This document shows, in pieces, positions 25,250 through 42,832 of a stretch of 48,303 nucleotides of DNA (positions are counted from its first letter, which is position 1; every line of letters begins with the position of its first letter). The stretch spans positions 1 to 48,303 of the forward strand of contig WRAD01000004.1 of NCBI GenBank assembly GCA_009780375.1, given 5' to 3'. Position numbers and translations under genes: made by a program. The notes beneath the pieces were generated by a model. The model saw only the letters and a list, made by a program, of their open reading frames with translations. It did not search any database and was not told the origin of the DNA. The stretch is from Bacillota bacterium. Lineage in GTDB: Bacteria; Bacillota; Clostridia; Christensenellales; UBA1242.

Positions 25250-28200
25250 TTAAAATGCACGGCGTCTTCCAAAGATTTTTTTAAGTGGATAGCACGCAGC
25301 CCCAGCAACACCCGCGGCTCCTGCGGTCGCCACCCCAGCCATTGCTCCGGTTGACATTCCTCCATTAGATGAAGATGCGACAGCGGTTGCAATTTCGCCC
25401 ATATTTCTGTACTGGCCCGCGGTATTATTTGCATCTGCCATTCTTCGCACAAAAATCCTGTACATTGTAGGTGCGGTTAGATTTTCAAATACAAGGTTTG
25501 TTGTCCAATTATCATCATTAACTGTTTGTCCGTAACCAACAACCTGGAATTCAAGTTCACCACCAGTATTGTTACTTAGAACTGTTAACGTTATTGTGTT
25601 GTAGATTTGTTTGAAATCAACGTCAAATGCAAAATCAACTGGGGTAACCGTTATGGTTATTTGTCTGCGAACCGTTTCAAAATTCGCGTTTCCTGAATTA
25701 AAGATTGCAAAGAATTGACGTGTGCCAACAGTCCCAACCTGCAGTCCCGCATTTTCCCATGTCCAACCATTTGGAAGTGTAATTGCACTTAACAGACGGC
25801 CTGTGTGAAATGCCTGAGACGTAATAGATGGGATTGTATATTCAGGGATTGCCTTTGTAATAGTAAATGTTACAGGACGTGTAATTGGATTAAAGTTTGA
25901 ACCACGATTATAAACCGCATAAAATGTGTGTGTGCTTGCATCAAGTTCTTGGTCATTTGCAACCCAAGTCCAGTTAATTCCAAGTTCAATTGTGTGAAGC
26001 ATAAGTCCTTGCGTAAATATTCTTGAAACAGGAGTTGGTATAACAAAGTCTGTTGGATCGGTTGGAATAATGTCAAGGTAAACACGTCTTATCACTTCAT
26101 GAAATGTGTCATTTATGTCTGTATGCGAGAACCTTATAAGGAATACACGCATTATGCCTACATTACCAACCGCTTGAGCATTTCCTGCGACCCATGTCCA
26201 TCCATTAGTCAAATTGATTTGACCAAGTGTTGTGTTGTATTCAACGGTTGAAGGCATAAGTGGAAGTGTTGGGTAGACAAATACAGAAACTTCTCTTTCT
26301 CTTATTGAACCAAAGCCACTTTCGGTTGAATCAAACCTTATAAGAAATGTTCTTATTCCTGGATTACCGATTGCCCTATCCTGCTCGTCAAGTGACCAAC
26401 CACCACCAATTCCCGATGCGATATCAGAAATCATTGTTCCTGTTATAACAGGTGCGATTGTTGGTGTATTTACATTAGGATCCGCATAAGTTACATTTAC
26501 ATAAATTCTGCGTGTCACTGTTGTAAAGTTGTGCGTATCTTTTGGGGTATAGATAGCATAAAAGTAATTTGTTCCAATGTTACCAACCTGTTGGTCGCCG
26601 TCTTTCCATTCCCAACCTTCAGGCAATTTAACTGTGTAAAGCATTGTACCGAATTCTACAGGGTCTTCAAGAACAGGAAGATCATAGCCAGGTTCGATTT
26701 GCTTGACGGTGATTTGGATTTCTCTTACTACCGTTTCACCAGCGTATGTAAATGTAATACGGAAAGTATGTGCACCAACATTTCCAACAAGTTGATCGTT
26801 GCCCGCAAACCATATCCAACCGTTGATAAGGTGTTCAAGTTGTCCAAGTGTTGTGTTGAAATCCGCAGTCAAAGTTGTTGGGAAACTTGGGAATACAAGA
26901 ACAGTTACAGAAAATGTAACAGGTGCAAAGTTTGCATTTGATGGAGTGAATCTTATTTCAAAAGTTTCAAGTCCAATACGAAGTGTGCGATTTGAAGATA
27001 CAAGTTCCCAACCTTTTGCAAGTTTAATTCTTTCAAGTTCTGTGCCTTCCAACACTGGTTGGAATGTTGGTGAAACAATGTCTGGTGTTGCCTGGTTAAT
27101 TGTTATCGTTACAGGAACACGGACGGTCACATAATTAATCCCTAGACTCTTTACAAGTTCGGCATAAATTATATGCGTACCTGCATCAAGGAGAAGTTGC
27201 GTATATTCTGCCCATTGCCATTCACTTGGTAAAAGATGTGCAATGTCTTCAAGCGTAAGTCCGTCCTTGAACGTGTATGTGATTGCATCTGGCGGTGTAT
27301 AGTCATTAATTATCATTGGCAATACGGTAATCATAATGTTGCGTGTCGCAGGAAGATAATTTCCACATGGTGAAATAAAAGTTGCAGCAAAACCTCGTGG
27401 AGTCGTTGTTGCATCTCCAACGTTCCTATTTGGATTTATCCATGTCCAACCTGTGTCAAGTTCAATTTCGCGAAGGTACGTTCCTACCATAACTTCGAAA
27501 GATGGTGCAACAACTGTTGAAATTGCAGGTCTTACATATATCTCTATTTGAATTCTTACAGTTGTAAAGTTTTCTATATCACTTGGAGTGTAGATTGCCC
27601 AAAAACTGTTTGTACCTACGTTGCCTACAGGGAGATTTACATTTTCCCATTGCCATCCATCACCCAGAGCAATTGAACCAACAAGCCTTCCTTGTTCAAA
27701 TGTTTGGTTAGCAATAACAGGTGGAGTGTAAGAAGGCGTTGCACGCGTTATTGTTACAGATACCAATCGAGATACGGTAACAAAGTTTATACTTAGGCTT
27801 TGTTCGAGGTCGGCATAGAAACTGTGCGTGCCTACACTTAATATTTGATTTTCATTTTGCCAAACCCATCCGTCGGGAAGTTCAATGTCACCAAGTACAA
27901 GACCTGCACTGATTTCATATGTTATTGGCTCTGGGGTTTGATATTCAAGTGCTGCCGGAGTAACCGCAATTGATATATTGCGTTCAATTGTTAAGAAATT
28001 TCCATCAAGTGGTGTAAAGCGTGCAAGGAACAAGCGTGAAGATATTACACCACCAACAGATTGATTTGGGTTAACAAATGTCCAACCTGGGGATAGGGTT
28101 ATTTCACTTAACATTGTTCCGTACTGGACAGAAATGCCTGTTGGAATTATGTATGGTGGCTTGACTTGGGCAACGGTAATTTGAATTGTGCGTGTTACAG

Positions 28201-30799
28201 GATAATAATTAACAAGGTCTGATGGGGTATAAATTGCTTGGTGGTTGTTGACACCTGCGTTTCCAACAGAAGCGGTTGGTGTTACCCATGCCCATCCACT
28301 TGGAAGTTGGGCCTCGATGTCAATTAATCTTTGACCGAATGTTGCATTAATTCCTGTTGGAATTGTATAGTTTGGGGTCGCCCTTAATACATTTATTGTT
28401 AATGTAAAAGTACGTGGACGTATGTTTGTGTTTGATGGTGTATAGATTGCATCAAATGCAGTTGACCCAACCAGAGTTAATATATCATCATTGTTAACCC
28501 ATGCCCAACCATTTGGCAATATAATTGACCCAAGTGTGTCATTAATTCTTCCCTCAAGATTCGAAGGCATTAGCGATGGGGCAATTGTACTTATTGCAAA
28601 GCCATTGTTTGCATAAACACCTGCTTCGAATTCATCATTTTCAAGTGTTCTTACAAACACGTAGTAATTTTCATTTACACGAAGGTCATCAAATACCGGT
28701 GAAGTTTGCCAGTTAAGGTTTGACCAATTATTGTAACGGGATATTGCGTACTGGACCATTTGGTCGTTATCTATACTCATAGTACGATTTGTTATTGTCA
28801 ATCTGTCAAGTTCTTGGTGAAATTCAAGATTTGTTGCGATTGCACCAACACCTCTTGCAACATTCATTGGAAAAGTTACAAAACGTCCTCCACCAACATA
28901 ATGCGTTAAATTTGTTGCACCCGCAACAGAAGGTGTGAATGGTTGGATGCCAAGCTGCTGCAAGAGACCTGCTGGATTAAATTCTTGTCCGATTCTTCCG
29001 TTTACTTGGGTTGTTGAAAAGAAGAAACCTGCACCACGTAATGGATTGGACGCATTCCATTGACCACCGGTAATGTTTGGGGTTGTTACGGTAATCTCAC
29101 CATCACTAAAAACACGCAGATTTCTTATCATCATATGGTTGCTGCTTAACTGTCTTATCCTTAGTGCAATGAAACGTGTTCTTACCGGCTCTATAAATGC
29201 GGTTCTTTCGTTATTGTCGGTTCCTGCGGTCCAAACAATATCGGCAGGGGTTTGATTTGTCCATACACTTGATGCGGCATTAAAGTCTGCTCTCATATAT
29301 GTACTGTTAATTGCAATACTTGCCGCGTCTCTTGTTTCACAAAGTGTCCAAATTTGTGCACGTGTGATACGCCCATCACTTGTACTTGTTCTGTTATGTA
29401 ATCCAAGCCCTGTAACAGTTCTTACTTCTCCAAGGTCAATAATAATTCTGTCCATAGTAGTTCCAGTTGTAGCAACTGCACCAGTCGTCGATACACCTAT
29501 AATTGCATTTCCCGCGTTTGTTGCGGTGTTATTAACATTGCCGTGCCCACCAACACCATCTATACCTTGGCTCCATATCGAATTATTTGCTCTTGTAGTA
29601 CCCCATACCGAGTGAAAATGATTAACTGTATTACCATTATTCAAGAAAGTTACTGTTCCGTCGTTGCCTGTGTTAGACGAGTCTGGTGCAAATGCAACAC
29701 GATAGTTAATCAAACCACCATGACCGACATAACGACTGTCATTTGCTTCTGCGACCGCGGCACGAACACCACTGTTATATAAATAGCGACTTCCATCGGT
29801 TGGTGTTTCGACGGCATTTATACGCACACCTTCAAGAACAATAGCAACTTGGGTCCATCTTGAACTCCACCATGTGGATGTTGCACCAAAGAGTCGCAAC
29901 CAAAGTCCACCGTTGTCCGCAATTTGTGCAAAATCAGATGGACTTATGGCAAGTGTTTGTGTGCGGAATTGCCAACTGTTGTTGCTTCCATCGAAACTGT
30001 TTCTTGAACCAGTTAACCCACTTGTTATGCCGATACTTCGTGCGGTTTGACCTGATTGCAATACTCCGCGTGGACCAGACGCTATTGTTCCTGCACCCAT
30101 TATCGAACCATCGTTACTTCTTGGCAAGCTGTCTGCCCAATTATCATTGAATCCACCTGATCCTGTGCCGTCACCATTTGCTGTGCTTCGTAAATTATGA
30201 CCTCTGTTTTGATCAACCCTGTGGATTCTTGTATCCATGACCTGATTAAAGTTAAGATCGATAAGGGAAATTGTCGAACCTGCCGCATTTGCACCACCAG
30301 GCAACCAATCCCGACTTGCATCGGCAAGCACACCAATCCCGAAAAAGAATTCAAAAGAAAGGCTTTGAATTTGACCTGAGTTTCGAAGTGCGTCTTGAAG
30401 ATCACCACCAATTGTTATGTGTTCTTGCAAAGTTGCATGGCGATCGGTATAACCGGAACTTCCATCACGCTGAAGAGATTGAAAGGATGTATATGAGATA
30501 GGTGCGGTTGCGTTATCATTGATTTGGTTTCTGTTTTCTGGACCACGTTGACGCAAATTATAATTACCACCTATTGGATTTGCGGTATGACCTATCGAGT
30601 GAGTGCCTAAACCATTAAAACCAAGTGCACCCTGTCCAACAACATGATTTTGTCTAAGATTGACTTCGCGTGCCGCCTCGACAGTGGTTCCATCATTTGA
30701 TTTTCCATTTTGTATAAAGACAAGTGCCCCTGTGATTGCGAATGCAAACATAGCACAAAATGCCACTGCAACACGCATACGCTTAAAAACTTTATTCAT
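25250..30799 (-). CDS. 1849-aa surface protein: discoidin/F5-8C-like domain, 14 Ig-like repeats, FN3-like modules, C-terminal anchor
   Basis: Signal peptide; IIIDLGEVRTVTG...PVRTRFIALRI (F5/8C-like); L..I.LP.GW.W repeats about 70 aa; F.(D/N)L....(Y).(V/I)FVR; G/A-rich hydrophobic tail plus KK..RRR. Confidence 0.85.
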   Translation of the reverse strand: MNKVFKRMRVAVAFCAMFAFAITGALVFIQNGKSNDGTTVEAAREVNLRQNHVVGQGALGFNGLGTHSIGHTANPIGGNYNLRQRGPENRNQINDNATAPISYTSFQSLQRDGSSGYTDRHATLQEHITIGGDLQDALRNSGQIQSLSFEFFFGIGVLADASRDWLPGGANAAGSTISLIDLNFNQVMDTRIHRVDQNRGHNLRSTANGDGTGSGGFNDNWADSLPRSNDGSIMGAGTIASGPRGVLQSGQTARSIGITSGLTGSRNSFDGSNNSWQFRTQTLAISPSDFAQIADNGGLWLRLFGATSTWWSSRWTQVAIVLEGVRINAVETPTDGSRYLYNSGVRAAVAEANDSRYVGHGGLINYRVAFAPDSSNTGNDGTVTFLNNGNTVNHFHSVWGTTRANNSIWSQGIDGVGGHGNVNNTATNAGNAIIGVSTTGAVATTGTTMDRIIIDLGEVRTVTGLGLHNRTSTSDGRITRAQIWTLCETRDAASIAINSTYMRADFNAASSVWTNQTPADIVWTAGTDNNERTAFIEPVRTRFIALRIRQLSSNHMMIRNLRVFSDGEITVTTPNITGGQWNASNPLRGAGFFFSTTQVNGRIGQEFNPAGLLQQLGIQPFTPSVAGATNLTHYVGGGRFVTFPMNVARGVGAIATNLEFHQELDRLTITNRTMSIDNDQMVQYAISRYNNWSNLNWQTSPVFDDLRVNENYYVFVRTLENDEFEAGVYANNGFAISTIAPSLMPSNLEGRINDTLGSIILPNGWAWVNNDDILTLVGSTAFDAIYTPSNTNIRPRTFTLTINVLRATPNYTIPTGINATFGQRLIDIEAQLPSGWAWVTPTASVGNAGVNNHQAIYTPSDLVNYYPVTRTIQITVAQVKPPYIIPTGISVQYGTMLSEITLSPGWTFVNPNQSVGGVISSRLFLARFTPLDGNFLTIERNISIAVTPAALEYQTPEPITYEISAGLVLGDIELPDGWVWQNENQILSVGTHSFYADLEQSLSINFVTVSRLVSVTITRATPSYTPPVIANQTFEQGRLVGSIALGDGWQWENVNLPVGNVGTNSFWAIYTPSDIENFTTVRIQIEIYVRPAISTVVAPSFEVMVGTYLREIELDTGWTWINPNRNVGDATTTPRGFAATFISPCGNYLPATRNIMITVLPMIINDYTPPDAITYTFKDGLTLEDIAHLLPSEWQWAEYTQLLLDAGTHIIYAELVKSLGINYVTVRVPVTITINQATPDIVSPTFQPVLEGTELERIKLAKGWELVSSNRTLRIGLETFEIRFTPSNANFAPVTFSVTVLVFPSFPTTLTADFNTTLGQLEHLINGWIWFAGNDQLVGNVGAHTFRITFTYAGETVVREIQITVKQIEPGYDLPVLEDPVEFGTMLYTVKLPEGWEWKDGDQQVGNIGTNYFYAIYTPKDTHNFTTVTRRIYVNVTYADPNVNTPTIAPVITGTMISDIASGIGGGWSLDEQDRAIGNPGIRTFLIRFDSTESGFGSIREREVSVFVYPTLPLMPSTVEYNTTLGQINLTNGWTWVAGNAQAVGNVGIMRVFLIRFSHTDINDTFHEVIRRVYLDIIPTDPTDFVIPTPVSRIFTQGLMLHTIELGINWTWVANDQELDASTHTFYAVYNRGSNFNPITRPVTFTITKAIPEYTIPSITSQAFHTGRLLSAITLPNGWTWENAGLQVGTVGTRQFFAIFNSGNANFETVRRQITITVTPVDFAFDVDFKQIYNTITLTVLSNNTGGELEFQVVGYGQTVNDDNWTTNLVFENLTAPTMYRIFVRRMADANNTAGQYRNMGEIATAVASSSNGGMSTGAMAGVATAGAAGVAGAACYPLKKIFGRRRAF
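25650..28560 (-). repeat. 14 tandem ~70-aa Ig-like coding repeats
   Basis: Counted 14 copies of the GW.W-type core with VG..G...F.A.(Y/F)TP...N(F/Y)..V; limits approximate. Confidence 0.8.
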
Positions 30800-31115: not shown

Positions 31116-32405
31116 ATGCAATGCAGCGTTTGTAACAAGAATCCTTCATTAAAAAAACTTCAGACCCCTAAAGGTGAGGTTAGCATATGTGGCGAATGTC
31201 TGGGGCGACTTGAGGCAATGAAAGAACAAAAGCACCTAACGGTGCGTTTAAGCCGAGATCCTAGTACAAAAAATTTAACGATAATTCCTAGATTATCAAA
31301 AACATCTGCGAACAGTATTATTAAAAGGTCGGGACTTCCTGCCCCATCGGAAATTCGGGCACATTTGGATGAATATGTTATTGGGCAATTTGATGCGAAA
31401 AAGGTTTTGTCTGTTGCGGTGTACAATCATTATAAAAGAGTTAATTATACCAATTCAGATGATAATAACGAACGTGTAGAGCTTGGCAAAAGTAACGTAT
31501 TAATGTTGGGCCCAACGGGTTCGGGAAAAACACTTGTTGCAAGAACACTTGCACGTGCGCTTGACGTGCCATTTGCATCTGCCGACGCGACTTCGCTTTT
31601 GTCTGGAGGTGGACGAGGCTTAGAAGAGAAAGTTATTATCCCACTCGCACAAGCATGTAACTATGATTCAAAAAAAGCCGAGCGTGGGATTATATATATT
31701 GACGAAATTGATAAAATTTCAAAACGTGGACATAACCACGCCCTTGGAGAGAGTATCCAACAATCATTGTTAAAGATTATCGAGGGTACGGTTTCTACAA
31801 TTATGGTTCAAGGCGAGAAACGGTCAATTCAAATTGATACAAGCAATATTCTATTTATTGTTGGTGGTGCGTTCGTTGGAATCGAGGACCAAGTACTTAT
31901 GCGTTTTGGCGGTGGGGCAAGCGTAGGCGAAGTTAAAACAACAAATGAACTTCTTAAGGAAGTTACTCCAAGTGATATAATAAAATTTGGACTTATACCT
32001 GAATTTGTTGGGCGACTTCCTGTGATTGTAACGCTTGATGAACTTGATCACTCTGCCCTTATTAAAATTTTGACCGAGCCAAAGAATGCACTTGTCAAAC
32101 AATATAAGAAAAAATTTGCACTTGATGGAATTGACCTTGAATTTGACAAACAAAGCCTTGTGACAATTGCGGATATGGCACTTAAACTTAAAACAGGTGC
32201 AAGAGGGCTTCGAACTGTTATGGAAGAAAGTATGCTTGATATTATGTACAATGCACCAAGTGAAACAAATCTTAACCGCATAACAATCACAAGTGATGTC
32301 ATTACAAAAAGCGGGAAAGCAACGTTTCAATATATTGAGGCCGCGGCGGCGACAAAACTTGATGAACTCTTACCAAAGCGACCACGAGGCAAGGCGGCAC
32401 CTTAA
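31116..32405 (+). CDS. clpX: ClpX-like AAA+ ATPase, divergent (pore, RKH and IGF loops lost)
   Basis: C4 zinc finger, LDEYVIGQ..AKK.LSVAVYNHYKR, GPTGSGKT, IIYIDEIDKI, GLIPEFVGRLP, TGARGLR. Confidence 0.88.
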   Translation: MQCSVCNKNPSLKKLQTPKGEVSICGECLGRLEAMKEQKHLTVRLSRDPSTKNLTIIPRLSKTSANSIIKRSGLPAPSEIRAHLDEYVIGQFDAKKVLSVAVYNHYKRVNYTNSDDNNERVELGKSNVLMLGPTGSGKTLVARTLARALDVPFASADATSLLSGGGRGLEEKVIIPLAQACNYDSKKAERGIIYIDEIDKISKRGHNHALGESIQQSLLKIIEGTVSTIMVQGEKRSIQIDTSNILFIVGGAFVGIEDQVLMRFGGGASVGEVKTTNELLKEVTPSDIIKFGLIPEFVGRLPVIVTLDELDHSALIKILTEPKNALVKQYKKKFALDGIDLEFDKQSLVTIADMALKLKTGARGLRTVMEESMLDIMYNAPSETNLNRITITSDVITKSGKATFQYIEAAAATKLDELLPKRPRGKAAP

Positions 32406-32424
32406 TATAAGGAGGATTATATAA

Positions 32425-33186
32425 ATGCAAACGGTTAAATATGACAATGGGGACAGTTATGTTGGACATATTCAAAATGGAAGACGTAATGGCAAAGGTG
32501 CCTATTTTTTTGCAGACGGTAACAAATATGAAGGCGATTGGGTTGACAGTAAAAAACACGGACAAGGTACCTATATTTTTAAAGATGGAAGTAACTATAA
32601 GGGTGATTGGAAAGATGATAATCGTCATGGCAATGGCATATATCTTTTTCCAAAAGGCGGTGGCTATGATGGCGAATGGATGAACGGAAAGCAACATGGG
32701 CAAGGCATTTACATGTACTTTAATGACGACAAATATATTGGCGAATGGAAAGAAGGCAAGCAACACGGCAAAGGCACTTACATTTATGCAAATGGCAACC
32801 AGTATCATGGCGAATGGGTTGAGGGAAAAAAGAACGGCAAGGGTTTATTTACCTTTGCACTTAAAGACAGATACGAAGGAGAATTCAAGGATGATATGAT
32901 GCATGGAAAAGGCATCCTTGTATATGCGACAGGTAAACGATACGAAGGGGAATTCAAGGATGATAGAATACACGGCAAAGGTTCCTTTTTATACGTAGGA
33001 GGCGATGAGTATTCTGGAGAATGGGTTGATGGAAAGAAAAATGGCAAAGGAACAAAACATTATCGTTCAGGCGACAAATTTAACGGCACGTGGGTAAATG
33101 ATAAACGCCATGGTAAGGGCATATATATTTACGCCAATGGCACACAAGAGGCACGCGAGTATCGCGATGATGAACGCGTCAGTTAG
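32425..33186 (+). CDS. MORN-repeat protein (about 10 repeats of 23 aa)
   Basis: Repeated Y.GEW..GK.HG.G.Y....G; AAGGAGG SD; no signal peptide. Confidence 0.93.
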   Translation: MQTVKYDNGDSYVGHIQNGRRNGKGAYFFADGNKYEGDWVDSKKHGQGTYIFKDGSNYKGDWKDDNRHGNGIYLFPKGGGYDGEWMNGKQHGQGIYMYFNDDKYIGEWKEGKQHGKGTYIYANGNQYHGEWVEGKKNGKGLFTFALKDRYEGEFKDDMMHGKGILVYATGKRYEGEFKDDRIHGKGSFLYVGGDEYSGEWVDGKKNGKGTKHYRSGDKFNGTWVNDKRHGKGIYIYANGTQEAREYRDDERVS

Positions 33187-36959: not shown

Positions 36960-37835
36960 TTATTCAAGATCATCTTTGACCGCTTTGAGACTTTGTGCAA
37001 TATCCTTTAACATTACATCCATTGGATCGGGACCAGAGTCTTTTGTTATTGAGACAGGCTGGGGCGTTGAGGCTTGATTATAATGTTGTAAAGGCGGTGA
37101 CGGCGGAGATTGGTGATGTAAAGCGGACGGTTGCATAGAAATTTCTTTGCGTTCATGTTGTGGAACATTATTAATTATAACAGGTTGTGCACTATCTCTT
37201 AGATATTGTGGGATTACAGGAGGGTTTGCATTATGATTGATGTAACTTCCTATCGAATACATTTTAAAATGTCCAACAAGTTCTGCAAGCATAGATTTCA
37301 TATCTATGATGTCATCATTAGCACGTTCTATCTTGTCATCAAGTTTTGACATATAACCTTTAATCATTTCCGCCTGGCCACCATTTGTTTGTATCCGAAC
37401 CTCAATAAAATTTTCCATTAATTTGTCAAGTTTGTTTTCTACCTTATCAAATTGTTTTTGAAAATCACCACCTGACTGGTTATGAACGGTGCGTTTAATT
37501 TCGCATATGTCACTTATGCCCTCTTTAAATGCCTGGTGAATTTTTTCAAGCATTTCTTGTTTTTGTCGCTGTTTACTTTTAATCTCTTCTTGGTTTTCTT
37601 TAAGTTCGGTAAAAATCTTTTGTGTAACTTCGTTCATCACTGCCCCCTCTTTTTTTATTGTTCCAATGTGCGTATTCGAATTCATTTTCAATGCATTAAG
37701 TTCCATAAGTTCACGACGAACCGCAGAATTTGTCTCTTTTCGTTTATTCTCAAGTTCTTTGATACGGGCTTTTCGCAATTCCTCATCCTTTAAATATTGA
37801 GGTTGAACACCACCAGGCATTATTTTGTTACTCAT
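36960..37835 (-). CDS. cytoplasmic coiled-coil protein with Pro/Gln-rich linker
   Basis: K/E/Q-rich helical N-terminal two thirds, no TM or signal; GGAGG SD and ATGA overlap with upstream gene. Confidence 0.8.
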   Translation of the reverse strand: MSNKIMPGGVQPQYLKDEELRKARIKELENKRKETNSAVRRELMELNALKMNSNTHIGTIKKEGAVMNEVTQKIFTELKENQEEIKSKQRQKQEMLEKIHQAFKEGISDICEIKRTVHNQSGGDFQKQFDKVENKLDKLMENFIEVRIQTNGGQAEMIKGYMSKLDDKIERANDDIIDMKSMLAELVGHFKMYSIGSYINHNANPPVIPQYLRDSAQPVIINNVPQHERKEISMQPSALHHQSPPSPPLQHYNQASTPQPVSITKDSGPDPMDVMLKDIAQSLKAVKDDLE

Positions 37836-40800
37836 TTTTTACCTCCTTTTTTCGCCGTTTTGTATTCTTTTGCCAAGCGAACGGCTTTTTGTGCAGAATC
37901 TCCTGCATTTTGTATTGCATCCATCGCGGTCTCACGCATTTTAGATTCCTGCTTTGCAATTGAGGCTTGGCCTGTTGCAAATCTGAGATCATTCATCGCT
38001 TTATCAAGTGCCTGTGTTGCCGAGTTCTTAAGTTCATTTAGGGTATTCATTTTTATCTTTGCTTTGCGTTTACGTAAATATAGGAATGTGCTTGCCAATA
38101 TCACCGCCGCAAGCGTGCCAACACCAATTAAAATCCAATGCAGATTATCCATAAAAAAGTTTCTGTCATCGTCATCCAAATCTGGCGATGGAAAATCTTG
38201 CTTTTCCTCAAGTGCGGCAAAAGTATTGGTCAGTGCATTGAATGCGGTTTCATAGGAATAACTTCCGTTTGCATCCCATTCCATGAGAAGGAAAATAGAA
38301 ATTCCAAGCCATTCTAAAAATGGTTCAACCGTTTCTTCAGAATAAAGATTTCTAAAATGCAATGTTATTACATCTAGGCTGTCGTCTGGTTCTATTGATT
38401 GCCAATCAAAGTCTCCAAGTATAAATGATACAAGAAGATGTAACTTTGATCGATAAGGATCTATATCACTTTCATCCAATTCATTTACTGTGATTACAAC
38501 CGAATAAGTTTGTGTGTTTCCTGCCGGAGACACCACAACAATATTAAACGTTGATACACCAACAGGTAATATTGGAAGAGTTTGCCCATTTCTGTTAACG
38601 CCATCTACGACAAGTTCAACACTTGCATCAGGATTAGTTGAGATTGCATTTATTACAACGGCATGACGCAAATGAAACGAAATAGGCATAGGTTCGAAAA
38701 TCCTCTCACCATTCCATGGTTTCATGATACCCGCGACGGTTAAAACCAAATCATCAAGAGCACGATAGTCTGGGTCTTCGGTTGGATCGGTTATTATATC
38801 GGATGGCAAGACTATTATATTGAATTGCGTAATTGTATCTTGATAAGTTATTGTTAATACACGCAACATCCCTGGCCCAGTAGGCGTTGCAACCACCTCG
38901 TTCCAAGCAAGTGCCCCACCAAGCATTGCAAGTGTTACGTCAACTTGACGTTGTTCTGTGTCTGACATTGTGACCAAAATACGAATTTCCCCGGTTACAT
39001 ACGACTGCCCAACTATCCAGCCAACTCGGCTTCCTGCCATTACAGATATAGATTCAACCGTAGGGATTTCTGGTGCTGCATTCACAGTAATTTGGAAAGT
39101 AGTTGTTGTATCAAGATATGTAATCACAAGTGTCTGTATTCCAGGCGTAGAGATAATACCATTCCACGTTGAAATACCACCTATCATTGCAAGAGTTACC
39201 GACGTATTATATATGTAAGTATCATTGATGTTTACTTGTATTACAATTGCCTCTTGGTCAAATGCCTCACCTATCATCCATGTGTTTCGGCTTTGATTAT
39301 TTATAACAAAAATATTTACATTGTTCGGATTCGCAGGTGCAATGACGGTAATTTGCCTTGTTGAGGTAAAGCCAAGATGTGATATGGTCACATTTACATT
39401 CCCCAAATCATTCGTATTAAATGAATCACCCATCATTGCAAGTGTTACCGCATGCCCTGTGTCAGGTGTTTCACGCCAATTCCATATGAATTCAAATTGC
39501 CAACTGTTGTCATATGCCGATCCTCTTGTAAAAGTGGTTGTTCCGACATTCATAATTCGAATTTCGGTTATCTGAGCCACAATGACAGAAACAACAAAAG
39601 GATAATTATGCGCAAGATGTGTCAGGTTCAAAATCATTTGCCCTTGGGAAGAAGTATCAAAACCTGCGGTCATCGCCATAGCGGTTGTTACAGGAATTCT
39701 TGTTGGGACGCGATCATCTGTCCAATGTGCAATAATTTCAATCGCATTATTTTGATAAGGTTCGCCTTGCACAAAGTTATGCCTGTCGCGGATTGTTGCC
39801 CATTCCGCACTTATGCGATAAATGACGGCAACAGGAGCAACGACATTTATATCAACGGTTAAAGAAAATCCTGCGTACTCTATTACAAGTTGACGTGGAC
39901 CCAGGACAGATACAGAGGTATTAAAGCCAGTAATCATTGATGCCGTCACAGGAATAGAATTTGTCAAATTGTTTGCACCAGACCAATTATGAGTAAAGAA
40001 AACAGAAAACCTGTTATCATAAGGTGCATTTTGTGTAAATGTTAGATTTGCACCAGGAACAAGTTCAATACCATTTATTATTGGGGCAACAACCTTTGCA
40101 GACATTGTAACAGGTTCAGTCACATTTGCATGAGTGAATTGCAAAGTTGTAATACCTGGGATTGATGTATTAAAACCTGCATTATTTGCCATTGATGCGG
40201 TAACAGGAATAGGTGCAGAAGATGATCCGTCGGTATAATGATGGACGATTTGAATGGCACCACTTGGGAATGATTCACCAACGAAAAAGAATGGTTCAGG
40301 AATTCTTTCTGGTGCAGAAAAGATAAACCCAGGTGTCCATTGTGCACTTATGCCATTTACAATTGCGTTTGCCGCAATAACTGTGATTGGAACATCAATT
40401 GTAAAACCTTGGTAATAAATTACAAGCTGACGCGAACCATGAACAGAAACCGCATTTTCAAATGCTTCCAGACCACCAAGCATATCAATTGTCACCGTGA
40501 TTGGATTTTGCGAATTATTTGCCCCTGGCCAATCATGTGTTATATAGATTTGAAATCGGTTATCATATGCCGCGAATTGATTAAATGTAGTATTTGTGGC
40601 AAGTAAATTAATCCCACTTGGATTTGGTATAACAACATCAACGATGAATTCAACAGAGTGTGGCAGTCCTGTTGTCGGGTTAACAGAATGTTCAAAATTC
40701 AACGTATATGTTCCAGGTGTTGCAAAACCTGTTACAGGAAAACCGGCGGTAATTGCCATAGCCTGACTTACATTTACCACAGTTGTTGTGTTGTCGCTGT

Positions 40801-42832
40801 TATGTAATACCAGTCTTATTGCGTTCGTATGATATGTCTCGCCTACAAAAAAGAAAGGCTCAGGACTTCTGGAAGGTGACGGGAATATAAATCCCGCAGT
40901 CCACTCTGCGGTCATATCTATTACCGCAACCGCAACGGTAACATTCAAATCAATATTACGAAAAGTGCCATCTTCGCCATCTATCCTGATGATTATCGGC
41001 GTTGTTACGCCAGGCAAAACATCTATATTATGTGTTCCAAGACCAGATGTAATTGATGCCTCTTGTATATTTACCACACTTGCGGCAATTGTGAAATTAT
41101 CTGTACCATGTGGCAGAATTACATTTATCGGCACAGGGGTACTGAATTGATTTGCAAGAAGTCCGACAGGTGGAAATACAGACGGAGTTGTCGGAGTTGG
41201 TGTAATTGTCAAGTAGGTTAACCCAAGATCTGCGGTTCGAACAAAAAATTGTATTGTACGTACAACCGAATTTCCAAATTGTGGGGTTGTTGTTATTACA
41301 AGCACATTATTAGAACCGGGTTGAATATCTTCAAGTGGATTTATATTTTGGTCTATAGGCATGCCATTTAATGTTATCGCAACAGATGATAAAGATGATT
41401 CAGGTGAAACAGTCAATGTGATTGCATCTGCATGACTTAGTGGAATTTCTTCGAGAATGTTCCAGATTGCATTTGTACCTGTTGGATTTAGCCATTGGCT
41501 CGAAGCGGTTTGCACAGCACCTCCAATTTCAAAATTGAATCCAGTTATATTTGTATTCGAATCTCCCCCATTTCTTATAACATTAATTGTATGCGTGGCA
41601 AAAAAGTTTCCACTTGCCGATGTTATTGTAAATGTTATAGGTGTTGTTGAATAATTTGGCAATGCAACGCTTTGCAGGCTGACGGTACTTTGTTCAAACG
41701 AGACGGTTGCACCACTTGTTGCGACAATTTCAAAGTCCATCACTTCAATTTGTGTAGTTGTAAATGGCAATGTTATTGTATTCCATATATTTGTTCCTCC
41801 ATCACGATTAATCACCAACTCGGCATGGATTATATCATATATCTCGACCGAATCAAGAGGATTTACCGGTGCATCAAGGGTTATTGCCACCGTATAAATT
41901 TCTGTTGTTATTTGGTCCTGTGCAACAATTTCGATTTGAACAATTGTAGTTGTACCTGTACTCAGCGAAAGAAAATCATCAAAATAAGACGCATGCGGAC
42001 CACCATCAATACTTATTGTTGCAACATTTGATTCAGGTGATGCACGAAGACGAAAGTCATTCGCATATATATATTGAAATTCGTATGGCAGAACAAGCGT
42101 TGTTGCACTTGTCCACATTGATGGACTTATATTAAATGCCTCTTCTGCTATTTCAATTACCAGATTATCTCGATCCAGTTTTGCATTATTGCAAAATATT
42201 GTCGTTTCACCCTCAAATACTATATCAAGATTACCAAGTGCCAATCGGCCATTCGCATAGTCATGTTGAATTGCAATATCTGCGTGTGGGTTGACACTTG
42301 TGAACGCGGGACCTGTTTCAAAATTTATGCTGTATGTACCTGGCATTACATCGTCTCTAAGTCTGAAAATAATATCACCAAGATAATATTCATTACCAGG
42401 GGCGAATATTGGCATCGCGTTGACGTTACTGAATCCTTTGTTAATTTGTCCTAGTGTATTATTAAAGGTATAATTTTGACTTATCGGCATTTCAAAGACA
42501 CCTGGGATACCTACTATTAATGTGTTTACCTCTATCCTGTCAACCTGAAAAACATTAGGATCAAATAATATACGTGCATCAGCCATAGCAAGTTCCGCAT
42601 TTCCAAAAATCCACAGTGAAACAGGTAACTCGAAAGTTGTGGTATTTATAACTGACAAGTCAATTGTTATTGTGGCATCTGTGCTTAATACCATTATTGC
42701 CTCTGAATCGGCAGGTATCTGGTGACCTGCAACGGTTAAAACCGGTAAAGTTTGAAATTGCATGATTAATAAAGCGATTGCCGTGACTATCACTGTTATT
42801 ATCATGCCTGATAAAGTTTTGTTTTTTTTCAT
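37832..42832 (-). CDS. membrane-anchored scaffold: cohesin-like domain, cadherin-like and Ig-like (Big_3-type) repeats, TM helix, ~80-aa cytoplasmic tail
   Basis: Signal helix; TFELPVSL...ARILFDPNVFQV...LGDIIFRLR....PGTYSINF (cohesin-like); I.V.A.D.....Y.V.I; VGE.F....I......G...L.I.Y; WILIGVGTLAAVILASTFLYL-RKRK. Confidence 0.8.
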   Translation of the reverse strand: MKKNKTLSGMIITVIVTAIALLIMQFQTLPVLTVAGHQIPADSEAIMVLSTDATITIDLSVINTTTFELPVSLWIFGNAELAMADARILFDPNVFQVDRIEVNTLIVGIPGVFEMPISQNYTFNNTLGQINKGFSNVNAMPIFAPGNEYYLGDIIFRLRDDVMPGTYSINFETGPAFTSVNPHADIAIQHDYANGRLALGNLDIVFEGETTIFCNNAKLDRDNLVIEIAEEAFNISPSMWTSATTLVLPYEFQYIYANDFRLRASPESNVATISIDGGPHASYFDDFLSLSTGTTTIVQIEIVAQDQITTEIYTVAITLDAPVNPLDSVEIYDIIHAELVINRDGGTNIWNTITLPFTTTQIEVMDFEIVATSGATVSFEQSTVSLQSVALPNYSTTPITFTITSASGNFFATHTINVIRNGGDSNTNITGFNFEIGGAVQTASSQWLNPTGTNAIWNILEEIPLSHADAITLTVSPESSLSSVAITLNGMPIDQNINPLEDIQPGSNNVLVITTTPQFGNSVVRTIQFFVRTADLGLTYLTITPTPTTPSVFPPVGLLANQFSTPVPINVILPHGTDNFTIAASVVNIQEASITSGLGTHNIDVLPGVTTPIIIRIDGEDGTFRNIDLNVTVAVAVIDMTAEWTAGFIFPSPSRSPEPFFFVGETYHTNAIRLVLHNSDNTTTVVNVSQAMAITAGFPVTGFATPGTYTLNFEHSVNPTTGLPHSVEFIVDVVIPNPSGINLLATNTTFNQFAAYDNRFQIYITHDWPGANNSQNPITVTIDMLGGLEAFENAVSVHGSRQLVIYYQGFTIDVPITVIAANAIVNGISAQWTPGFIFSAPERIPEPFFFVGESFPSGAIQIVHHYTDGSSSAPIPVTASMANNAGFNTSIPGITTLQFTHANVTEPVTMSAKVVAPIINGIELVPGANLTFTQNAPYDNRFSVFFTHNWSGANNLTNSIPVTASMITGFNTSVSVLGPRQLVIEYAGFSLTVDINVVAPVAVIYRISAEWATIRDRHNFVQGEPYQNNAIEIIAHWTDDRVPTRIPVTTAMAMTAGFDTSSQGQMILNLTHLAHNYPFVVSVIVAQITEIRIMNVGTTTFTRGSAYDNSWQFEFIWNWRETPDTGHAVTLAMMGDSFNTNDLGNVNVTISHLGFTSTRQITVIAPANPNNVNIFVINNQSRNTWMIGEAFDQEAIVIQVNINDTYIYNTSVTLAMIGGISTWNGIISTPGIQTLVITYLDTTTTFQITVNAAPEIPTVESISVMAGSRVGWIVGQSYVTGEIRILVTMSDTEQRQVDVTLAMLGGALAWNEVVATPTGPGMLRVLTITYQDTITQFNIIVLPSDIITDPTEDPDYRALDDLVLTVAGIMKPWNGERIFEPMPISFHLRHAVVINAISTNPDASVELVVDGVNRNGQTLPILPVGVSTFNIVVVSPAGNTQTYSVVITVNELDESDIDPYRSKLHLLVSFILGDFDWQSIEPDDSLDVITLHFRNLYSEETVEPFLEWLGISIFLLMEWDANGSYSYETAFNALTNTFAALEEKQDFPSPDLDDDDRNFFMDNLHWILIGVGTLAAVILASTFLYLRKRKAKIKMNTLNELKNSATQALDKAMNDLRFATGQASIAKQESKMRETAMDAIQNAGDSAQKAVRLAKEYKTAKKGGKK

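Follow-up and report, generated by a model that had tools for sequence, protein, structure and literature searches.

What becomes of a ClpX-type ATPase whose loops for holding substrates and for docking on its protease have been lost, and what does it mean that its gene is followed by that of a MORN-repeat protein? The question is raised by a pair of genes in a contig of a Bacillota bacterium (WRAD01000004.1 in assembly GCA_009780375.1), analysed here over its whole stretch of 48,303 nucleotides (nt), hereafter called the window; it is contig C4 of the source genome G000, a draft of 689 kb in 21 contigs that is 65% complete. A preliminary description of this DNA had placed a MORN gene 19 nt 3' of an open reading frame (ORF) resembling ClpX, and both ORFs, encoding 429 and 253 amino acids (aa), respectively, are present where it put them. 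We propose that the first gene is a lineage-specific clpX duplicate, whose product has probably turned into a ClpP-independent, non-threading AAA+ ATPase that would work as a two-gene module with the MORN protein encoded 19 nt downstream.

According to its sequence, the 429-aa protein is a member of the ClpX family. It scores 449 and 432.7 bits against the NCBIfam ClpX equivalog models NF003745 and TIGR00382 (cut-offs 359 and 370.75, respectively) and matches the solved ClpX chains in the PDB with E 7e-107; the flanking scaffold had been described as that of ClpX, and indeed the equivalog cut-offs are passed and the AAA+ body aligns with the solved structures. The motifs of the nucleotide site, also said to be intact, are all present: Walker A, Walker B, EFVGRLP (with R300, which we take to be the arginine finger) and TGARGLR (with R363, presumably sensor-2) are invariant in all the 30 paralogues that we aligned (22 collected at genome loci, 8 taken from the protein database). 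Compared to canonical ClpX (E. coli chains in PDB entries 6po1, 3hws, and 8e91), the protein has the same large and small AAA+ domains, with about 50% identity over residues 70-401, the same Walker A/B, arginine finger and sensor-2 elements, and, in its own clade of the paralogues, the four Cys of the N-terminal ribbon. Unlike canonical ClpX, the paralogue has no GYVG motif, its pore-2, RKH, and IGF loops are shorter by about 6, 7, and 9 residues, respectively, it is encoded away from clpP, and it possesses a conserved extra C-terminal tail as well as an obligate MORN neighbour. With respect to the zinc finger, the preliminary description holds in part: the four Cys residues are kept and AlphaFold2 predicts a confident fold for residues 1-39 (predicted local distance difference test, pLDDT, 93-96), but the Pfam model zf-C4_ClpX is not reported for the protein at E<=0.01. 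In the same model a disordered linker (residues 41-71, pLDDT <50) leads to a confident AAA+ body (mean pLDDT 79.7). The ribbon is not essential to the function of the paralogue family, because only 5 of the 30 members retain it; one of the 25 that lack it (P0154) may be a cut ORF.

In canonical ClpX, the GYVG loop of pore-1 grips and pulls the polypeptide, the pore-2 and RKH loops help to engage tagged substrates, and the IGF loops dock on ClpP. All four had been described as altered in this protein, and the alignment to solved chains shows each of the named changes. To place them in the family, we compared the segments between fixed anchor columns in the 30 paralogues and in 40 canonical ClpX sequences. 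The pore-1 motif G[YFW][VIL]G, the pore-2 motif RDVSGE, and the RKH-type tripeptide are each present in 40/40 canonical sequences and in 0/30 paralogues, and the [ILMV]GF tripeptide occurs in 39/40 and 0/30, respectively. The pore-2 segment comprises 10-12 residues in the paralogues (median 11) vs a canonical median of 17, the RKH segment 3-13 residues (median 11) vs 18, and the IGF segment 29-37 residues (median 33) vs 41-45 (median 42). Thus the altered loop state, whose conservation among orthologues the preliminary description had proposed to examine, is found in 30/30 paralogues and 0/40 canonical proteins, and therefore the changes are not due to chance. The replacement loops vary between clades of the paralogue and are conserved inside each clade. 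To judge from its sequence, the 429-aa protein fails in all four features that define the loops of a ClpP-partnered unfoldase. Because these loops are all lost or shortened while the nucleotide site is conserved, we favour an ATPase that would neither thread polypeptides nor cooperate with ClpP; that the paralogue cannot serve ClpP is very likely. A ClpP-dependent unfoldase with unusually divergent loops is highly improbable in comparison: the protein does pass both equivalog thresholds, and annotation would name it ClpX, but not one of the 30 paralogues has an IGF-type tripeptide or the pore-1 aromatic motif, the docking loop is about nine residues shorter, and in none of the six relatives discussed below does the gene adjoin clpP.

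The loop-less ClpX-like gene is no assembly artefact, because contigs from a run of a different study are identical to it, with no differences, over 31408-31936, which spans Walker A and all four loops, and over 32179-32605, which bridges the junction of the two genes. The data sets listed as holding the window are termite-gut metagenomes, and there is no RNA data set among the listed holders. Both genes of the pair are under strong purifying selection (dN/dS, the ratio of nonsynonymous to synonymous substitution rates, 0.02-0.12). Among paralogues of the genus g66, dN/dS is 0.09 at dS 0.30 and 0.07 at dS 0.87, and it is 0.02-0.05 in more diverged pairs, in which dS is saturated; for pairs of MORN genes it is 0.06 at dS 0.96 and 0.11 at dS 1.0. 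The reading frames of all 30 aligned paralogues are intact. We give next to no credence to the idea that the gene is a decaying duplicate without function, to which the loss of four functional loops and the insertion of a dispersed repeat into the linker of this copy might point: dN/dS of 0.02-0.09, intact frames, and invariant ATPase motifs speak against it, as does the occurrence of the identical sequence in the run from a different study, and the repeat is in frame and inside the disordered linker. Low dN/dS together with the conservation of the replaced loops within clades rules out neutral decay, against which the preliminary description had asked for the ratio to be determined.

The repeat itself is present in more than 40 full or partial copies (85-96% identity), spread over 15 or more contigs; another copy besides that in the linker is found directly after tig on contig C2. 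The summed contig depth over the copy in the linker is 191-630, compared to 3-8 elsewhere in the gene, and this copy accounts for the linker being 31 aa longer than in the nearest kin, P0152. It looks like a repetitive extragenic palindrome (REP)-like or miniature inverted-repeat transposable element (MITE)-like element that can insert into coding sequence.

Where did the paralogue come from? We scanned 401 genomes of one small-genome Bacillota family and found that the second ClpX copies cluster in four genera, g1, g3, g16, and g66; a set of 40 relatives all encode ClpP above the Pfam cut-off. Two ClpX-like genes are present in four genomes of the same genus (G001-G004) and in two of other genera (G006, G019), and in each of these six the paralogue, with the same loop losses, is on a contig separate from clpP and from the canonical clpX. 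The canonical clpX is beside clpP in 5/6 of them (in G019 the two are on separate contigs). The paralogue lacks the usual linkage to clpP in all six. Between the AAA+ body of the paralogue and that of the canonical ClpX found in its genus, identity is about 50%, and the nearest kin among the paralogues in the protein database, all of which are metagenome proteins, is 68% identical to the protein studied here. For the 30 paralogues and 40 canonical sequences, we calculated a maximum-likelihood tree (a quick search, unrooted) of the AAA+ body, using 267 alignment columns that exclude the four loops. One branch, with a value of 99 in the Shimodaira-Hasegawa-like approximate likelihood-ratio test (SH-aLRT), separates all paralogues from all canonical ClpX; another (SH-aLRT 93) separates 29 canonical sequences, including those from other families and phyla, from a group formed by the paralogues and the canonical ClpX of the four genera that carry them. 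If the root is among the distant sequences, the most parsimonious reading, and no more than that, would be that clpX was duplicated within the family, in the common ancestor of these four genera.

A library of representatives at 50% identity is unable to resolve the family, since it groups the paralogues, at 50-64% identity to canonical ClpX, together with the canonical proteins, and in this library only P0002 and P0005 are clearly of the paralogue type; scans of collections with the single protein as query yielded 160 loci, all of them with canonical ClpX, which served us as a negative control. A phage origin, suggested by a look-alike search with a language model, is not supported: the listed matches in phage collections have identities of 44-53%, and bacterial ClpX is just as close. 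Membership in an anti-phage defence system is likewise not supported by the PADLOC matches, which for the ATPase are only weak and generic AAA ones (the best to IetA, 3.3e-08, in the P-loop region) and for the MORN protein are none. The library of representatives also contains P0001, from outside the window, a protein of 1238 aa with three tandem ClpX-like AAA+ modules, in which the pore-2, RKH, and IGF regions are all shortened and the pore-1 motifs read GYHG, GYIG, and SYRG; judging by this arrangement, it would be half a ring, its loop-reduced ClpX modules being joined covalently.

In the source genome itself, our search found neither clpP over the cut-off nor a second ClpX in the 65% of the genome that is represented. 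The statement that no clpP or tig is near the pair is borne out, with tig located on another contig, whereas the search for a canonical clpX and clpP gave a divided answer: the canonical clpP-clpX genes exist in the related genomes, but neither was found in the incomplete source genome. The designation "paralogue" therefore rests on the relatives. In G002-G004, tig is followed by clpP-clpX, with clpP and clpX abutting; in G001, clpP has no preceding tig, and an ORF of 365 aa with a hydrophobic N-terminus (L038 2281-3378, contig C21) stands between clpP and the canonical clpX. In the source genome, tig is in the middle of the 91-kb contig C2 and is followed by the repeat copy, by small unannotated ORFs, and by a 419-aa ORF; at 36736-40715 of C2, the 1.4-kb stretch after tig contains two small ORFs that are near-duplicates, ahead of the 419-aa ORF. 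The ORF that follows clpX in the relatives, which we take to be engB, was not found in this assembly. The loss of clpPX and its mere absence from the assembly cannot be told apart, because 35% of marker genes are missing.

These comparisons bear on the main rival of our proposal, namely that the paralogue joins canonical ClpX hexamers as a modulator, either an antagonist that weakens ClpP docking and translocation, or a subunit whose tail recruits MORN so that the latter serves ClpXP as a substrate adaptor. The co-existence of canonical clpP-clpX in every examined, sufficiently complete related genome is in keeping with mixed rings, and so are the roughly 50% identity of the AAA+ body to the same-genus canonical copy and the tree, in which the paralogues are placed next to the canonical ClpX of their own genera. 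On the other hand, a poison subunit has no obvious need of invariant ATPase motifs, the N-domain is lost in 25 of 30 paralogues, the paralogous and canonical genes are on different contigs rather than co-located, and no canonical partner was found in this incomplete assembly. We regard this explanation as unlikely.

The partner gene is the second distinctive feature of the locus. The 253-aa protein is an exact array of eleven 23-residue units, in which Pfam finds 10 MORN stretches (PF02493; 218.8 bits vs a gathering score of 22.5) and, at E<=0.01, no other family. Its closest solved relatives are MORN1 proteins (E 1e-52), and all the 31 solved relatives found are eukaryotic. The linkage between MORN and paralogue genes, which the preliminary description had proposed to check, is strict: a MORN gene is located directly 3' of the paralogue at 26/26 loci where this could be judged (7/7, 15/15, and 4/4 in three sets), on the same strand and abutting or overlapping it. 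One of the 15 MORN genes in the second set is cut by a contig end, and one further MORN gene at a contig end (in G319) was left out of the 26. Conversely, there is no MORN neighbour at any of the 160 canonical clpX loci (flanks of up to 4 kb) and, in other families of the order, no ClpX-like neighbour at any of the 7 MORN loci inspected. Partner-type MORN matches (at least 174 bits, plus one cut copy) are present in 27/401 genomes of the family, including all the sampled genomes of the four genera with the paralogue (g1 5/5, g3 2/2, g16 1/1, g66 19/19). The flanking genes differ among the genomes that carry the paralogue, and only the pair is conserved. Hence, the MORN gene is an obligate neighbour of the paralogue.

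In the window, the pair is flanked by ORFs of the opposite strand, one of 1849 aa upstream and three on the minus strand downstream, and because they bracket both sides the ClpX-like and MORN genes look like a self-contained bicistron. The promoter-like matches in a scan are about as many as expected from shuffled sequence, and the + strand has no terminator-like site. No third gene is conserved across the paralogue-MORN genomes. In G004 (contig C17, L035 3240-4370), an ORF of 376 aa starts 3 nt past the MORN gene on the same strand and may extend the operon in this species only. The partner genes also differ in length: the MORN proteins of g66 (e.g. L049 1916-2539) have about 209 aa, about two repeats fewer than those of g1 and g3, and are without the C-terminal EPxEY...R, and the acidic tail of the g66 ATPases is longer and in most cases terminates in GK[GNS]Y. 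From these sequences it appears that tail and MORN length may co-vary in g66.

Could the tail of the ATPase be what holds the two proteins together? The majority consensus of the 30 paralogue C-termini ends with ELxPLxPxxxRxxxA, and no such shared tail is seen by eye (without counting) in the canonical copies of the alignment. The preliminary description had recommended modelling a hexamer with ClpP and MORN; we predicted the complex of the ATPase (residues 70-429) with the full-length MORN protein, supplying a family alignment for each. The interface score ipSAE was 0.76, 0.77, and 0.75 in three runs, compared to 0.01 for the best control; the mark used to read this score is reached by 58/80 solved complexes and by 2/110 mismatched pairs, a calibration that holds only roughly for alignments of one's own. 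The three runs share at least 83% of the contacts, and the pLDDT of the partner is at least 91. On the side of the ATPase, the predicted interface consists of residue 385 and residues 406-429, i.e. almost entirely of the tail, and it spans MORN repeats 1-8; on the other side, the predicted contacts are made by conserved aromatics of the repeats, Y12, Y35, Y58, and Y81, as well as Y27/F29, Y50/F52, Y73/F75, Y96/Y98, and Y119/Y121. Thus, the model supports, without proving it, a complex in which the C-terminal tail of the paralogue (residues 406-429) runs along the MORN solenoid within its aromatic groove. Such binding has precedents: the groove of junctophilin-2 (JPH2) holds the C-terminal peptide of CaV1.1 (PMC8916002) and the groove of MORN4 holds the tail of myosin-3a (Myo3a; as cited in PMC7725318), in both cases an extended segment of the partner in a concave or longitudinal groove lined by conserved aromatics of the repeats. 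The contacts predicted here would use the equivalent Tyr/Phe positions of repeats 1-8. Unlike in our case, these solved relatives are all eukaryotic, and the ligand here would be the tail of an AAA+ ATPase, whose binding is predicted only.

Obligate pairing is also what one would see if the MORN protein were the client, and the ATPase controlled its oligomeric state or turnover, e.g. by dismantling its assemblies. The closest solved relatives are MORN1 proteins, and the MORN1-type proteins form tail-to-tail dimers and higher oligomers (PMC7725318). Nonetheless, the usual threading route to dismantling is missing without the pore-1 aromatic residue, and what is predicted looks like a stable tether, with the tail in the groove and the pore not engaged, so that we find this role improbable. 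The features discussed so far are collected in Table 1.

Table 1. Positions of the genes and elements of the ClpX-like/MORN pair in the window, with the details on which each assignment is based
Feature	Position	Strand	Details
ClpX-derived AAA+ ATPase gene, loop-stripped paralogue type	31116..32405	+	429 aa; ORF, NCBIfam scores, PDB ClpX match
Four-Cys zinc ribbon (C3, C6, C25, C28)	31122..31199	+	N-terminal; sequence, AlphaFold2
In-frame copy of the dispersed repeat	31223..31302	+	codons ~37-62, disordered linker; ~72-80 nt, small hairpin
Walker A, GPTGSGKT	31509..31532	+	aa 132-139; G132, P133, T134, G135, G137, K138, T139 invariant in 30/30 paralogues
Pore-1 position, LSGGGRGLE replacing GYVG	31599..31625	+	aa 162-170; alignment to solved ClpX
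Walker B, IIYIDEIDK	31689..31715	+	aa 192-200; D196, E197 invariant in 30/30
Pore-2 loop, shortened	31728..31763	+	aa 205-216; 5-residue deletion vs solved ClpX
RKH loop, shortened, no RKH	31806..31826	+	aa 231-237; 5-residue deletion vs solved ClpX
ClpP-docking IGF loop, shortened, no IGF tripeptide	31905..31934	+	aa 264-273
EFVGRLP	32001..32021	+	aa 296-302; E296, F297, G299, R300 invariant in 30/30
TGARGLR	32193..32213	+	aa 360-366; T360, G361, A362, R363, L365 invariant in 30/30
Paralogue-specific C-terminal tail, predicted MORN-docking peptide	32331..32402	+	aa 406-429; family consensus, predicted interface
Spacer, 19 nt, with ribosome-binding site AAGGAGG at 32409-32415	32406..32424	+	sequence
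MORN-repeat partner gene	32425..33186	+	253 aa, eleven 23-residue units; Pfam MORN, PDB MORN1, periodicity

The preliminary description had inferred a new function from the selective loss of loops in a protein with an intact ATPase, such as that of a non-proteolytic ATPase, of a ClpX antagonist in mixed hexamers, or of a remodeller guided by a MORN adaptor. A new function connected with the MORN gene is supported by a conserved clade under purifying selection, from the canonical copy kept by the relatives, from the pairing at 26 of 26 loci, and from the prediction of the complex, with the tail placed in the MORN groove and controls at 0.01 or below. In the mechanism that we propose, the ATPase would form a hexameric ring like that of ClpX, and the ring could bear up to six MORN proteins at its rim. 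Binding and hydrolysis of ATP would be a switch that assembles, positions, or remodels the MORN scaffold or the ligands of the scaffold, and no proteins would be fed to a protease. It is tempting to go one step further and to consider the ring of the ClpX lineage as an ATP-driven organiser of a bacterial MORN scaffold, in which six tails clamp six solenoids and the nucleotide state controls the assembly or placement of a MORN structure. We offer this more specific version tentatively, as possible but doubtful; if true, it would be the first function assigned to a bacterial MORN protein and a natural example of an unfoldase of the HCLR clade turned into a non-threading switch.

A ring of the ClpX family that works without ClpP is known from yeast mitochondria, where Mcx1 acts in the activation of ALAS. 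Unlike the protein described here, in which the pore-1 motif is gone, the ClpP-independent ClpX of the Mcx1 type still uses its pore loops, for partial unfolding of the client. The nearest described case that we found is ClpX3 of Myxococcus xanthus, which, as far as the accessible part of the report goes (PMC11423568), is also an extra, dispensable ClpX encoded away from clpP and without the N-domain and RKH; its protein could not be studied in vitro, and that part is silent on a MORN neighbour and on the state of GYVG and IGF in ClpX3, the word IGF being absent from the text. The tethering of SspB-type adaptors to ClpX (PMC9963277) offers an analogy, in that a short tail connects a ClpX-family ring to an accessory protein. 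Unlike in that system, the polarity would be reversed here, with the tail on the ATPase and the groove on the accessory protein, and no delivery directed to ClpP is expected. Our search of the literature, which covered main texts without supplementary files, found no description of a ClpX-MORN pairing, the two being mentioned together in one unrelated paper.

Several observations weigh against our proposal of a non-threading, ClpP-independent module. The conservation of the replaced pore loops within clades leaves room, as far as the sequences tell, for a non-canonical contact with substrates, and the ribbon kept in this clade means that some ClpX-like contacts with adaptors or substrates may persist. 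Canonical clpPX was found neither elsewhere in the source genome nor after tig, and if it is truly absent, the protein is the only relative of ClpX there. Because peptide-in-groove MORN complexes have already been solved, part of the predicted interface score could reflect likeness to them, in addition to the rough calibration mentioned above. Outside the inspected set, five more genomes of the family have two ClpX matches (G159, G161, G193, G231, and G275), and twelve genomes of other genera have weaker MORN matches, in ORFs of other lengths. Finally, the ATPase activity, the hexamer, the absence of ClpP binding, and the binding of MORN are themselves inferred or predicted.

The window also encodes two very large products on the minus strand, of 1849 aa (25250-30799, the ORF upstream of the pair) and 1666 aa (37832-42832). 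Both begin with a hydrophobic segment and end with a hydrophobic anchor, and between the two a module of about 90-100 aa is repeated many times; from this layout they are probably cell-surface proteins, and the two ORFs account for a considerable part of a roughly 1-Mb genome.

ClpX ranks among the most thoroughly studied AAA+ machines, and in this respect the pair described here may be regarded as a natural experiment: four loops that have been dissected by mutagenesis in ClpX were removed together in nature, while the motor stayed under strong selection, so that a ClpX ring that would neither thread nor serve ClpP becomes accessible to study. The predicted link of tail and groove, in turn, provides a testable handle on bacterial MORN proteins. 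The module has been seen in four genera of one uncultured family only. Since the paralogue passes the thresholds of the ClpX equivalogs, it will be annotated as a subunit of the Clp protease, and reconstructions of proteostasis and metabolism in small-genome gut bacteria may count it as ClpX.

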